47,202 bases of DNA from a virus (taxonomy: Duplodnaviria; Heunggongvirae; Uroviricota; Caudoviricetes), in IMG/VR virus record IMGVR_UViG_2861038214_000003, positions 1 to 47,202 of that record, one strand, 5' to 3'. A program made the translations under genes and the position numbers. Below the pieces are notes generated by a model. That model was given only the letters and a program-made list of their open reading frames with translations, made no database searches and was not told the DNA's origin. This document shows, piece by piece, positions 31,549-45,671 of the stretch. Each line of letters begins with the position of its first letter. Positions within the stretch are counted from its first letter, which is position 1.

Positions 31549-31820
31549 TTCTTAATCTCTCGATGGCGCAGCGCAGCAGATGCCAGTTGTTCAGGCTGAC
31601 GTATGAAGTATAAATAAACTGGCTCCAGTGTAAAGCCCCACCTTAATGGAATAAAAACCAAACAACAGATTGCTGGGATACAAACAACGCTTATTATTAA
31701 AAGCGGTTAAACAAATTAAATTTTAATGTTATGCAAATCTGCCAGATCACCATAATATCTCATTTGAAAACCGCTGAAATAACAACCCTATTAGGGTTAA
31801 TCATATTAAGGTGAGTAAAT

Positions 31821-31907
31821 ATGGAAAACAACAAATCTGCACATTACGTTCCTTTTTTATCTGTAATACTTTTTGTTTTATGCTGTGCGTGGGCATTATT
31901 TTTATAA
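31821..31907 (+). CDS. 28-aa hydrophobic peptide (candidate small membrane or toxin-like peptide)
   Basis: Strong RBS TAAGGTGAG 7 nt before the ATG; MENNKSAHYVPFLSVILFVLCCAWALFL*; found by hand. Confidence 0.35.
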   Translation: MENNKSAHYVPFLSVILFVLCCAWALFL

Positions 31908-32013
31908 AAATATTCACAGATAAAATATACCCGCCAAAGTTGGTTAAGTGCGGGTGCGTTGAGGATGCCTGACTCATCAGAGGTGGCGAGGGATTTCTCC
32001 CTCGCCTGGTCTC

Positions 32014-32166
32014 TCACTCCTCAGGTTCGTAAGCTGTGAAGACAGCGACCTCCGTCTGACCGGTTCGGATTTGTACCTCGCAGAAGTCTTTCCTTGTTAC
32101 CAGTGCCATCACAACGACGGTAATACAGATGACAATCAGGGCGATTAACATCGTCTTTTGCTGCAT
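32014..32166 (-). CDS. hokD: Hok/Gef-family type I toxin (HokD/RelF-like)
   Basis: Hand translation MQQKTMLIALIVICITVVVMALVTRKDLCEVQIRTGQTEVAVFTAYEPEE* closely matches HokD/RelF from memory; a 9-bp-stem hairpin lies just 3' (31986-32007). Confidence 0.85.
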   Translation of the reverse strand: MQQKTMLIALIVICITVVVMALVTRKDFCEVQIRTGQTEVAVFTAYEPEE

Positions 32167-32314
32167 CACAGCCTACTTACCCTTACCTTTCGTTCAAGCG
32201 GTAAGGTCACTTTTTCTGTTGTGTGCTAACCAACAAACCTCTTTTATCTGCATTAAAAATCGTTATCATGTCATCCTCAACCTGTTAATAGCCTATTATG
32301 GACTTTAGTAAACA

Positions 32315-34144
32315 ATGAGCACTTCCGCATACAAGAGCAAAATTCGAACACTCCAGTGCGCGTTAAAAAACGGTGAATTTGAACCATTCATACAACATAT
32401 CCGTTTTCCATACTTTAAAAATATAGAGCAGAATGCAAGGATCGATTTTCAGTTCCCTATAACGGCTTTAGTAGGAAAAAATGGAACTAATAAAAGTTCT
32501 GTTATCAAAGCGCTATTTGGTTGCCCACATGGTAAAAATATAACTCGTTATTGGTTCACAACTGAAACAGATGAGTTTCCTGACCTAAAACTTGCTGATG
32601 GCAGTTCTCTTAAACCTAGATATATATATGGATATAAAAATGCTGATGGCCGTTTAGTTGAAATACTCCAAGCACGTATCAATGCTACCAAGAAAACAAT
32701 CGATTATTGGGAAACAAGTCGACCATCTGTTGGTGATAACATGGAGAGTATTTCGGATGATCTGGGTGCTAATAGTAATGCAACCAGATGGAAAAAAATC
32801 AAGAAGGGATTGGTTTTCCTAGATTTCAGATCGGAAATAAGTGCATTTGATAGATGTATGTATCACTCTGATTTTAAATTAAGAAAGAAGAAGAGTGGTG
32901 TATTAATTACAAAGCAAGACTATATCAGAAGCAAATCTAAATATATAAAGAAAGCTTTTGATGAAAAGCTAAGTAATTTAAGACTCTGGGGGGCGGAAAC
33001 CATTGTTAAAAATATAACCTTGGCGCCAGAACTAGTTGAGCACGTCTCATTTATATTAGGGAAAAAATATAAAGTCATTAAATTTCTTGAGCATCGGTTA
33101 TTTGGAACCAGAGGAGGAACCGCTTTACTTTCAACTGATAAGTTGAACTATACAGAAGCGTTTGCTGGAAGTGGTGAATTTGCAATAGTTTCACTAATAC
33201 TCAATATTTATTCGGCCAAACCTAATTCATTAATTCTTCTTGACGAACCAGAAGTTTCACTTCACCCTGGTGCACAAAAAAGGATGATGGATGTTCTGTA
33301 CTCTATTGTTGAGCAGAAAAAACATCAAGTGGTAATATCAACCCATTCTCCTGTTATTGTGAACACTCTTCCCAAAGATGCCATTAAATTATTTGTTTTT
33401 GATGAAGAGAGTGAAACAGCTAAAATAGTTCAAAATATAGCACCGGATGAAGCTTTTATAGAGCTAGGGCATGATATTAACAAGAAAACAATAATTGTAG
33501 AAGATAAATTAGCTAAAGCAATTATAGATAAAGCGATTAAAAATGATGAAAGATTAAGCTTATCATTTAGTGTAAGTTATATACCAGGTGGTTCGGAGAC
33601 CATTTTAAGCAAGCATCTTCCCAGTTACGCTGTGGTAGAACGCAATGATATTTTGTTTTTACTTGATGGTGATAAAAACAAAAAAATAAAACCAGTAAGA
33701 ATTAGTGAAATTGCTGATGCTGATTTAGTTAATACAATGTGCAAATATTATGGTTGCGAGTTAATTATCAATGCCAGTGGTAGTAATGGCAAAAAAAATG
33801 AACAAGAATCTAATAGACTCAAAAGGCAAGTGCTTGAGTATGCATTCAATAAAGTGCAGTATTTACCATTTGATACTCCCGAACAATTACTCATTGAAAA
33901 GGCAATTACGCCAAGTGAAAAAGAAATAATTGATTCACAGACCTGGAGTTCTAATGATCCAGAACTGTATAAGAATCAAATAAGATTATTAGCGCAACAC
34001 CTGTATGATAAAGAAGAAGTAAATGCAGAGGAAATTTTTTGCCTCCAACAAATGATGACCGCAAGACTTAAAAATGAATTGCCTGAATTTATAAAAATAA
34101 GAAAAATAATTACTCAGGCTCTTGACCGTGGTATCATTAGGTAG
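32315..34144 (+). CDS. OLD-family ABC-ATPase/TOPRIM nuclease (class 1 OLD-like, or a fused PARIS-like AriA-AriB)
   Basis: Deviant Walker A LVGKNGTNKSS, Walker B with LHP (LILLDEPEVSLHPGA), H-loop VISTHSP, then TOPRIM-like Glu (TIIVEDKLAKA) and DxD (LFLLDGDKNKK); 609 aa, AT-rich. Confidence 0.75.
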   Translation: MSTSAYKSKIRTLQCALKNGEFEPFIQHIRFPYFKNIEQNARIDFQFPITALVGKNGTNKSSVIKALFGCPHGKNITRYWFTTETDEFPDLKLADGSSLKPRYIYGYKNADGRLVEILQARINATKKTIDYWETSRPSVGDNMESISDDLGANSNATRWKKIKKGLVFLDFRSEISAFDRCMYHSDFKLRKKKSGVLITKQDYIRSKSKYIKKAFDEKLSNLRLWGAETIVKNITLAPELVEHVSFILGKKYKVIKFLEHRLFGTRGGTALLSTDKLNYTEAFAGSGEFAIVSLILNIYSAKPNSLILLDEPEVSLHPGAQKRMMDVLYSIVEQKKHQVVISTHSPVIVNTLPKDAIKLFVFDEESETAKIVQNIAPDEAFIELGHDINKKTIIVEDKLAKAIIDKAIKNDERLSLSFSVSYIPGGSETILSKHLPSYAVVERNDILFLLDGDKNKKIKPVRISEIADADLVNTMCKYYGCELIINASGSNGKKNEQESNRLKRQVLEYAFNKVQYLPFDTPEQLLIEKAITPSEKEIIDSQTWSSNDPELYKNQIRLLAQHLYDKEEVNAEEIFCLQQMMTARLKNELPEFIKIRKIITQALDRGIIR

Positions 34145-34167
34145 TGATTCTGGATGCAGAGGGAAAA

Positions 34168-35208
34168 ATGAAAAAAATCAAAGTGTTTGACTTCTTTTCC
34201 GGTTGTGGTGGAACCAGCCAAGGTTTCCATCAAGCTGGAATGGATATTGTTTTTGGCCTCGATTTCGACGTTGATGCAGCCAGTTCATTTCGTGCAAATT
34301 TCCCGCAGGCTGCTTTTATTAACTCGGACATTAGGTTAATCGACAACAATGCCATAAACAAGTTAGTAAAAAAACATCGTAATGATTACATTCTTTTTTC
34401 AGGATGTGCGCCTTGTCAACCGTACTCTAAGCAAAACTCAAATAAGAAAAATGATGATCCACGATTAGATCTATTAAAGGAATTCAGTCGCTTTGTAGAG
34501 CATTATATGCCTGATTTTATTTTTGTTGAAAACGTGCCAGGAATGCAAAAGTTTAACAAAAATGAAGGAACATTCATGATGTTTTTAGAAATGCTTTCAT
34601 CAAAGGGATATAGTGTAGATTATAAAGTAATGCCAGCTGCGTGGTACGGTGTACCACAGACGCGAGAAAGATTAGTGCTCATTGCATCCAAGGATTTTTA
34701 TGTCGCATTGCCTTCTCCTACACATGGGGTTGGAAATACTCCCTATTCAACAGTAAAGGACTGGATCGCTAATTTACCGAAGATAGAAGCAGGAGAAAAG
34801 CATAATAGTATTCCTGATCATGAAGCTGCACGCTTATCAGAGCTTAATTTACGTAGAATAAAATGCACTCCTGAAGGTGGAAGTCGAGAATTTTGGCCAG
34901 ATGAATTGATTTTAGAATGCCATCGTAACCATAAAGGGCATACAGACGTATATGGACGTTTGAGTTGGGACAAACCAGCCAGCGGACTAACAACTCGTTG
35001 TATTAGCTATTCAAATGGACGTTTTGGACATCCAACACAAAATCGAGCAATATCGGTTCGTGAAGCAGCGTGTCTACAAACATTTCCTTTGGATTATAAA
35101 TTTATTGGTTCTTTGCAATCTCGGGCTCGTCAAATAGGAAATGCGGTCCCTCCGAAGATGTCTGAAACGATTGGAAAACATTTGCTTAATATAATCAAAG
35201 CCTCCTAG
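34168..35208 (+). CDS. DNA (cytosine-5)-methyltransferase (Dcm-type)
   Basis: Motif I FDFFSGCGG, motif IV GCAPCQPYS, motif VI FVENVPG, motif VIII QTRERL, motif X GNAVPP; GAGGG RBS before the ATG at 34168 (the ORF track start at 34144 is GTG). Confidence 0.95.
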   Translation: MKKIKVFDFFSGCGGTSQGFHQAGMDIVFGLDFDVDAASSFRANFPQAAFINSDIRLIDNNAINKLVKKHRNDYILFSGCAPCQPYSKQNSNKKNDDPRLDLLKEFSRFVEHYMPDFIFVENVPGMQKFNKNEGTFMMFLEMLSSKGYSVDYKVMPAAWYGVPQTRERLVLIASKDFYVALPSPTHGVGNTPYSTVKDWIANLPKIEAGEKHNSIPDHEAARLSELNLRRIKCTPEGGSREFWPDELILECHRNHKGHTDVYGRLSWDKPASGLTTRCISYSNGRFGHPTQNRAISVREAACLQTFPLDYKFIGSLQSRARQIGNAVPPKMSETIGKHLLNIIKAS

Positions 35209-35228
35209 GAGGCTTTATTTTATTGTTA
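35197..35228. terminator. Bidirectional intrinsic terminator at the convergent junction
   Basis: Perfect palindrome gcctcctaggaggc flanked by A-run on the 5' side and TTTATTTTATT on the 3' side; overlaps the methyltransferase stop codon. Confidence 0.65.
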
Positions 35229-35241
35229 TCCCCCCTAGTAG

Positions 35242-45274: not shown

Positions 45275-45469
45275 ATGAGATATGACAATGTTAAACCATG
45301 TCCATTTTGTGGTTGTCCATCAGTAACGGTGAAAGCCATTTCAGGATATTACCGAGCGAAGTGTAACGGATGCGAATCCCGAACCGGTTATGGTGGAAGT
45401 GAAAAAGAAGCACTCGAAAGATGGAATAAACGAACCACTGGAAATAATAATGGAGGTGTTCATGTATAA
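45275..45469 (+). CDS. ralR: RalR, type I toxin (DNase)/restriction alleviation protein
   Basis: MRYDNVKPCPFCGCPSVTVKAISGYYRAKCNGCESRTGYGGSEKEALERWNKRTTGNNNGGVHV (64 aa). Confidence 0.85.
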   Translation: MRYDNVKPCPFCGCPSVTVKAISGYYRAKCNGCESRTGYGGSEKEALERWNKRTTGNNNGGVHV

Positions 45470-45671
45470 AATTACCGCCACTATTGAAAAGGAAGGTGGC
45501 ACTCCTACTAACTGGACAAGATATTCAAAATCTAAACTAACGAAATCAGAATGCGAAAAAATGCTCTCAGGTAAAAAAGAAGCAGGCGTTTCCAGAGAGC
45601 AGAAAGTAAAACTGATAAATTTTAATTGCGAGAAACTTCAGTCCTCGAGAATTGCATTGTATTCAAATTAA
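45462..45671 (+). CDS. ydaC: YdaC-like small protein
   Basis: GGAGG RBS; MYKITATIEKEGGTPTNWTRYSK.. (69 aa); start overlaps the ralR end. Confidence 0.7.
   Translation: MYKITATIEKEGGTPTNWTRYSKSKLTKSECEKMLSGKKEAGVSREQKVKLINFNCEKLQSSRIALYSN

Follow-up and report, generated by a model that had tools for sequence, protein, structure and literature searches.

A 5'-truncated hok gene beside a nuclease/methyltransferase cassette in a Rac-type lambdoid prophage

In the hok/sok (parB) locus of plasmid R1, Hok is made solely when ribosomes translate mok up to the hok Shine-Dalgarno sequence (SD), the Sok RNA acts at the mok translation start, and Hok production is abolished by mutations of the mok start codon or by mok stops placed before the hok start (PMC9841398). 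According to work cited in PMC8621323, R1 hok/sok stabilises plasmids and partly excludes T4. In the Stx prophage Sp5/933W, hokW-sokW has been shown to act as a toxin-antitoxin system and to aid lysis (PMC8621323). K-12 hokD (relF), in the Qin prophage, is a 5'-truncated orphan in which foreign genes occupy the place of promoter, mok start and sok (PMC6379469, PMC12214031); its inactivation is attributed to a rearrangement that followed the integration of relBE (PMC12214031, PMC6379469, PMC7232551). The K-12 genes hokA, hokC and hokE are chromosomal copies that were inactivated by IS elements and keep an intact open reading frame (ORF) (PMC12214031, PMC7232551).

Here, we describe a hok gene in a 47,202-nt stretch of viral DNA (the window), which is a Rac-type lambdoid prophage. 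Across the 551 bases surrounding hok, identity to E. coli ATCC 8739, FORC 064 and other strains is 100%. On one side hok is flanked by DUF977/LygF, the end of the replication module, and on the other by DUF1367-DUF1364-DUF1133(Q); it shares its strand with the replication genes and the Q-like gene and is positioned between them. In the RefSeq annotation of the identical locus, a divergent ‘ATP-dependent nuclease’ lies 145 bp from hok and is followed by a ‘DNA cytosine methyltransferase’, while relBE is found nowhere within 9 kb on either side. The first-pass annotation, made from the letters alone, was therefore right to place hok at the edge of a nuclease/methyltransferase cassette and to describe it as standing without relBE. 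Whereas relBEF is defined by a hok gene directly downstream of relBE and co-transcribed with it, the window hok has the cassette upstream.

The hok coding sequence can be read from a GTG at 32169, the start used by PGAP, to give 51 residues, or from an ATG at 32166 to give the 50-residue product (M)MQQKTMLIALIVICITVVVMALVTRKDFCEVQIRTGQTEVAVFTAYEPEE. The product scores 76.7 bits against Pfam HOK_GEF (PF01848; cutoff 22, E 1e-21, residues 7-47) and 102.8 bits against the PHROG family phrog_251, ‘MokW-like host killing’. It is a HokD-clade sequence, identical to K-12 HokD at 44 of 51 positions; the changes are K2M, A6T, L16I, I19V, T21M, L29F and R33Q, and among the set compared it is the most divergent allele. 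In RefSeq, PGAP names the product of the identical locus ‘Hok/Gef family protein’ (WP_032158962). Positions 32014-32169 can be assigned to the Hok/Gef family at a level far above chance, and the resemblance to HokD/RelF that the first-pass annotation had recognised is borne out by the profile scores and the identity. In K-12, A-to-I editing of the hokD mRNA, which changes Tyr to Cys, has been reported at a TACG Tyr codon (PMC12214031); the window hok keeps both the Cys and the TACG Tyr codon of this editing site. The pN/pS ratio between the window hok and other alleles is approximately 0.5-0.7, from 50 codons and tiny counts. On the minus strand, the start-codon region (32161-32176) pairs with the 3' end of the coding sequence (32030-32045), the equivalent in R1 being the pairing of GCCAUGAAA with UUUCAUGGC; the change from ATG to GTG at the hok start turns the A-C mismatch of ordinary hokD alleles into a G-C pair.

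Table 1. Features at and around the hok locus, in coordinates of the window.
Feature	Position	Strand	Basis or remark
Degraded intrinsic terminator	31919..31943	minus	alignment, folds
fbi-type sequence CCTCAACGCACC	31953..31964	minus	alignment
9-bp stem-loop just past the hok stop codon	31985..32006	minus	fold and covariation
hok coding sequence, HokD/HokW-type toxin	32014..32169	minus	Pfam, PHROG, identity to K-12 HokD
TACG at the Tyr codon of ...FTAYEPEE	32028..32031	minus	motif location
hok 5' leader remnant, ~36 nt	32170..32206	minus	alignments, folds, frame translation
Upstream ORF of 20 aa, MITIFNADKRGLLVSTQQKK	32269..32207	minus	GAGG SD, frame of the lost mok
Intergenic DNA, cassette-derived, unlike any hok leader	32207..32314		alignments; identical in all cassette-linked loci
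Cassette replacing the hok/sok regulatory half	32315..35208	plus	Pfam, PADLOC, block boundaries
ATPase-nuclease, 609 aa	32315-34144	plus	Pfam AAA_21/AAA_15; best PADLOC HEC-04, ATPase-Toprim, AriA/PtuA-like
C5 cytosine methyltransferase	34144-35208	plus	Pfam DNA_methylase; PADLOC MTase_II
Terminator-like hairpin, bidirectional, at the far cassette end	35196..35217	both	separates prophage replication genes from hok (minus strand)

We aligned the locus with full-length hok loci from phage Rac 442/2 (MN652886), phage Evi and E. coli ABWA45, and with an R1-type plasmid locus and K-12 hokD. Judged by these alignments, the window keeps just the 3' two-thirds of a hok/mok/sok locus (Table 1). Homology to full-length loci runs from position -36 relative to the start codon (~32205) to 31929; in local alignments two full-length leaders match each other over 188 nt, whereas the window stops at -36, and the BLAST block common to thousands of hokD-type loci covers 31929-32190/32195 only. 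Absent from the window locus are the hok promoter, tac (GGTGCTTGAGG), ucb, the mok SD and ATG, the Sok target, the sok gene and the -10 box of the sok promoter; unrelated cassette DNA stands in their stead, with the breakpoint between hok remnant and cassette DNA at ~32205-32210. Relative to Rac 442/2, positions 32191-35238 of the window (~3.0 kb) replace 1.6 kb that hold the hok leader and five small ORFs. The leader remnant contains the SD hairpin (arms 32206-32200 / 32187-32181), with an SD of AAGGGT in place of AAGGAG, and the start region has changed from ATG AAG to GTG ATG. Three stops interrupt the old mok frame between the junction and the hok start, two of them within the remnant. The SD and start-codon changes were seen exclusively together with the cassette junction: an exact-pattern search found the altered translation-start pattern in 11 viral contigs, all of which carry identical cassette-side upstream sequence.

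Profile and promoter searches gave a concordant picture. The Rfam sok model (RF01794) returned nothing for 31700-32500 even at E<=10, and at the gathering threshold the whole window held no sok/hok element, its sole family match being RalA (45468-45646); the full-length Rac 442/2 locus, used as positive control, scored 111 bits (E 2.6e-26). With position weight matrices (PWM), the control promoters scored 11.1 for Sok (TTGACC-18-TAATCT) and 11.2 for hok (TAGAAT -10 box), and nothing in the window hok region exceeded 8.2, a score that arises by chance ~1.8 times per kb per strand. A consensus promoter scan likewise gave none that could serve hok, an antisense RNA or the nuclease gene. Two candidate promoters, TTGAGG-17-TTTAAT on the minus strand 75 nt upstream of hok (score 8.2) and TTTTAT-16-TATCAT on the plus strand, were discarded because they score at chance level. 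We also considered the 5' UTR of the cassette mRNA as a hok antisense RNA and rejected it, the predicted divergent start sites overlapping by just ~8 nt. A Sok-like antisense RNA had been predicted at 32160-32260; with no Rfam match, no promoter and the sok-bearing DNA missing, that prediction is not supported. The same first reading had named a hok locus lacking its regulatory RNA elements as evidence against its proposal, and here sok, tac and the mok start are indeed gone while the hok ORF itself is intact.

In canonical hok loci, sok is encoded farther upstream, where it overlaps the start of mok. The hairpin with a T-run that had been put forward as the Sok site (arms 32181-32187 / 32200-32206, 7 bp, 12-nt loop) does exist, as do five T at 32211-32215, but in the alignment its counterpart in full-length hok loci is the hairpin that bears the SD. 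The fold of the window hairpin on the plus strand (-9.4 kcal/mol, z = -1.07) is equalled by 34 of 200 shuffles, the z score on the hok strand is -2.4, and a terminator scan did not call it. The alignment further places the -35 box of the Sok promoter, and no Sok terminator, in the hok SD hairpin of canonical loci. By its alignment, this ‘T-run hairpin’ is identifiable as the conserved hok SD hairpin.

The 9-bp-stem hairpin reported at the 3' end of hok proved to be real, with coordinates (31985-32006) shifted by one base from those first given. It folds at -19.7 kcal/mol with z = -5.6, none of 200 shuffles is its equal, and one pair covaries over 11 homologues (AU in six, GC in four, GU in one). 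It corresponds to the stem-loop that both ends and protects the processed hok mRNA in plasmid R1, and we infer its role from that analogy (PMC9841398). Further along, the fbi sequence is kept and its 5' partner tac is absent from the window, the fbi/tac complementarity having been read directly from the Rac 442/2 sequence; alignment to other hok loci, which had been suggested for the mok, fbi and tac elements, thus recovers fbi but neither the mok start nor tac. The intrinsic terminator is degraded, with a 5' arm of CCAAC vs CCCGC that breaks two of five pairs and an interrupted U-run, and it was not called in the terminator scan; homology to other hok loci reaches its 3' limit at 31929, in the stem of this terminator. 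Convergent with hok lies an unannotated plus-strand ORF (31821-31907) with a hydrophobic 28-residue product, MENNKSAHYVPFLSVILFVLCCAWALFL, preceded by a strong SD, AAGGTGAG. This ORF is conserved beside the full-length hok/sok of E. coli ABWA45, with 2 aa changes and ~90% nucleotide identity; it had no match in Pfam, PHROG or NCBIfam, and it may be a small membrane protein.

On the other side of the junction, the nuclease and methyltransferase pair (32207-35238) resembles a restriction-modification-like or methylation-associated defence pair; the cassette genes reached the cutoff of no named system's model. The TGA stop of the 20-aa upstream ORF falls 1 nt from the 5' arm of the hok SD hairpin. 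This ORF lies in AT-rich DNA, differs solely by nonsynonymous changes among three sequences, and could be either a chance product of such DNA or a substitute coupling ORF. In E. coli EC11 (locus L005, 4117-5947), the cassette nuclease gene reads as two ORFs, probably because of a frameshift, and the methyltransferase and hok are intact.

Set against its described relatives, the window hok is nearest to K-12 hokD. The two belong to the same Hok clade, share 91% nucleotide identity over 250 nt, occupy the same position class in a lambdoid prophage, and both keep the 3' stem-loop, the fbi sequence and the terminator region. They differ in the junction, which is at ~-14 in K-12 hokD and at ~-36 in the window, and in the foreign DNA, which in K-12 is a co-oriented relBE, with hokD as the third gene of the operon, and in the window a divergent cassette; the SD and start-codon changes and the broken terminator stem are found in the window allele and not in K-12 hokD. 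A single ancestral truncation was rejected for these loci since both the junction positions and the upstream DNA differ; the truncations were independent, and the window locus is an independent counterpart of the relBE-truncated hokD. The hokW-sokW locus of Sp5/933W and Rac-type hok/sok loci such as that of MN652886 belong to the same family (PHROG ‘MokW-like’) and share with the window the neighbourhood DUF977/LygF ... hok ... DUF1367-DUF1364-Q; these loci, however, are complete, with promoter, tac, mok and sok, whereas the window has no regulatory half. With R1 hok/sok the window has in common the HOK_GEF toxin, the SD hairpin, the 3' stem-loop and the pairing of the start region with the 3' end of the coding sequence, but R1 possesses the full mok/Sok/tac/fbi circuitry with post-segregational killing, and the window holds the fbi sequence alone, its partner gone. 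Where hokA, hokC and hokE were disrupted by an inserted IS, the window leader was replaced by a two-gene defence-type cassette.

Taken together, these comparisons favour one reading, which we regard as likely: the locus is an authentic hok gene of the HokD/HokW clade, the 5'-truncated remnant of a hok/mok/sok locus, now an orphan, not an autonomous toxin-antitoxin module, and most likely silent. It builds on the observed anatomy, the missing elements, the constant junction and the mosaic alleles described below. In this model, the divergent 3-kb ATPase-nuclease and C5-methyltransferase cassette replaced everything upstream of -36, removing the hok promoter, tac/ucb, the mok SD and start, the Sok target, sok and the -10 box of the sok promoter. 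Under the R1 paradigm, mok-coupled translation of Hok would then be closed at this locus. The gene would be silent in the lysogen, or expressed at most weakly by early-prophage read-through across the cassette; silence in the lysogen is what the sequence makes probable. Because the DNA beyond -36 has been replaced, the locus offers neither an antitoxin of its own nor a site for Sok from other loci, and with no antitoxin, no Sok target and no mok route we conclude that it is neither an autonomous toxin-antitoxin pair nor an addiction module; stabilisation of the element that carries it would not be expected when Sok is lacking.

To act by addiction or abortive infection, a module requires an antitoxin and a regulated toxin mRNA. 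Both are absent here, so that the proposal of the first-pass annotation, in which hok stabilises the island as such a module, finds no footing. Several observations nevertheless run counter to the remnant reading. None of the cassette-linked copies examined has a broken ORF, the locus still has a weak SD (AAGGG or AGG) ahead of a GTG or ATG start, the chance-level promoter-like site TTGAGG-17-TTTAAT is found 75 nt upstream, a change from AUG to GUG does not suppress toxicity (PMC9841398), and the pN/pS ratio of ~0.5-0.7, on its tiny counts, does not show free decay. Moreover, early transcription must cross hok to reach the Q-like gene, and hok RNA is therefore probably made upon induction.

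The cassette is present in 31 of 5426 complete E. coli genomes; a junction-spanning query matched over at least 80% of its length in 27 genomes, and a Hok/Gef protein is annotated beside the nuclease in 25 of the 31 listed rows. In the three loci that were opened (ATCC 8739, O103 RM8385 and EC11), the nuclease start lies 145, 145 and 142 bp from hok, respectively. No full-length locus with the window allele was seen, every E. coli match of at least 95% identity being cassette-linked, and no contig in a one-genome-per-species set matched the altered translation-start pattern exactly, so the junction seems restricted to prophages of E. coli and to viral contigs. Among themselves, the cassette-linked copies share at least 99% identity. 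Fifteen cassette-linked sequences encode six different Hok proteins, all intact. These alleles are mosaic, passing from the window type to the ordinary HokD type at varying points inside the coding sequence, and recombinant ones are named HokD by PGAP. Mosaic alleles at a constant junction are the signature of homologous recombination in which hok serves as the left arm of the cassette, and we infer that hok persists as a conserved homology arm for movement of the cassette among lambdoid prophages.

Other truncations of the leader were also encountered. Among the best 80 hokD-type viral loci, 76 allowed an assessment: the leader is complete in 70, two carry the cassette, two have relE upstream, neither of them with the window junction, and two are truncated in other ways. 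At L029 (1341-2429) a hokD-type leader is cut short by a 362-aa transposase gene, an IS insertion, and at L021 (1961-2395) by a rearrangement beside integrase and excisionase genes. Both junctions, as in K-12 hokD, fall just upstream of ACAGGAG, at ~-15, and the two truncations are further independent events.

The alternative that survives best, although we consider it unlikely, is a working toxin that has been rewired: hok would ride on the early transcript after induction and aid lysis or phage release in the manner of HokW, free of Sok control. Its translation would begin from its own weak SD with the GTG or ATG, or would depend on the stop of the 20-aa upstream ORF, where a terminating ribosome opens the SD hairpin. 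As a precedent, hokW-sokW doubles Sp5 release under mitomycin C induction (PMC8621323), and the position of hok between the replication genes and the Q-like gene, on their strand, would suit it; a terminator-like hairpin and 3 kb of antisense cassette, however, separate the early genes from hok (Table 1). The GAGG SD of the upstream ORF, its place in the former mok frame and its stop 1 nt ahead of the hairpin arm favour this reading, but the ORF is short, its DNA is AT-rich and the only differences among three sequences are nonsynonymous; in R1, besides, mok stops before the hok start abolish Hok synthesis (PMC9841398). Retention of the Cys and of the TACG Tyr codon at the editing site speaks for the rewired toxin. 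So does the intact ORF in six alleles, though with little weight, since cassette-linked copies that share at least 99% identity must be recent. The translation-start changes could, on this reading, be an attenuation that makes a Sok-less copy tolerable.

A more ambitious form of the same idea treats the rewiring as adaptive. The start changes and the 20-aa leader ORF would together constitute a Sok-independent, attenuated hok that is expressed solely on early read-through and moves together with the cassette in a three-part unit, acting as an induction-coupled lysis helper or as a last-resort abortive-infection effector. We judge this improbable.

Still less probable is a strict pseudogene, in which the window Hok peptide has lost its toxicity and the sequence drifts neutrally. 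The divergence of the allele (7/51 residues changed, the most in the set), the visible decay of the regulatory parts and a pN/pS of 0.5-0.7, above what a strongly constrained toxin should show though drawn from 50 codons and tiny counts, are in line with it. Yet no copy carries a frameshift or stop, the changes are conservative and affect variable positions or the hydrophobic helix, the match to Pfam scores high, and most Hok peptides are toxic when overexpressed, whatever their origin (bioRxiv 10.1101/2025.08.07.668861).

An autonomous type I pair, in which the leader (32160-32260) encodes a Sok-like antisense RNA and the island is stabilised through addiction or abortive infection, has in its favour a plus-strand hairpin followed by five T and the plasmid stabilisation and partial T4 exclusion by R1 hok/sok (cited in PMC8621323), but the sequence makes it scarcely credible and essentially rules it out: the Rfam sok model finds no match where the control locus gives 111 bits, 32160-32260 holds no plus-strand promoter, the plus-strand hairpin folds no more stably than shuffled sequence (z = -1.07) and aligns with the hok SD hairpin, the region that encodes Sok and pairs with it in the mRNA has been replaced by cassette DNA, and Hok homologues are not enriched near defence systems (12% observed vs 9.4% random; bioRxiv 10.1101/2025.08.07.668861).

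For the truncated-remnant reading that we prefer, the practical consequence is that a hok ORF found beside a defence cassette should count as a type I toxin-antitoxin or addiction module only if its leader and sok accompany it. More than once in lambdoid prophages, the regulatory half of hok/sok has given way to foreign cassettes: relBE in Qin, a nuclease/methyltransferase pair in Rac-like phages, and IS elements at other loci. The surviving hok coding region would then be a conserved recombination arm for cassette movement. This recurring anatomy likely reflects that only events removing the hok promoter and mok along with sok are viable. The gene is annotated in RefSeq and the class of 5'-truncated orphan hok genes is already known; our literature searches found no description of the cassette-hok junction, and the new details, namely the nuclease/methyltransferase junction and hok as a recombination arm, are small.

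Elsewhere in the window, the RalA antitoxin RNA matches Rfam with 225 bits at 45468-45646 on the minus strand and overlaps a 93-aa ORF (ralR) on the plus strand; RalA/ralR (window 45390-45671) is a second type I toxin-antitoxin pair and is typical of Rac. ARAGORN found no tRNA genes in the whole window. In the otherwise similar prophage of ATCC 8739, tRNA-Gly and tRNA-Thr lie between Q and the lysis genes (L001, 6853-7006), and their presence or absence is a mosaic difference between the two prophages in the late-regulation region.
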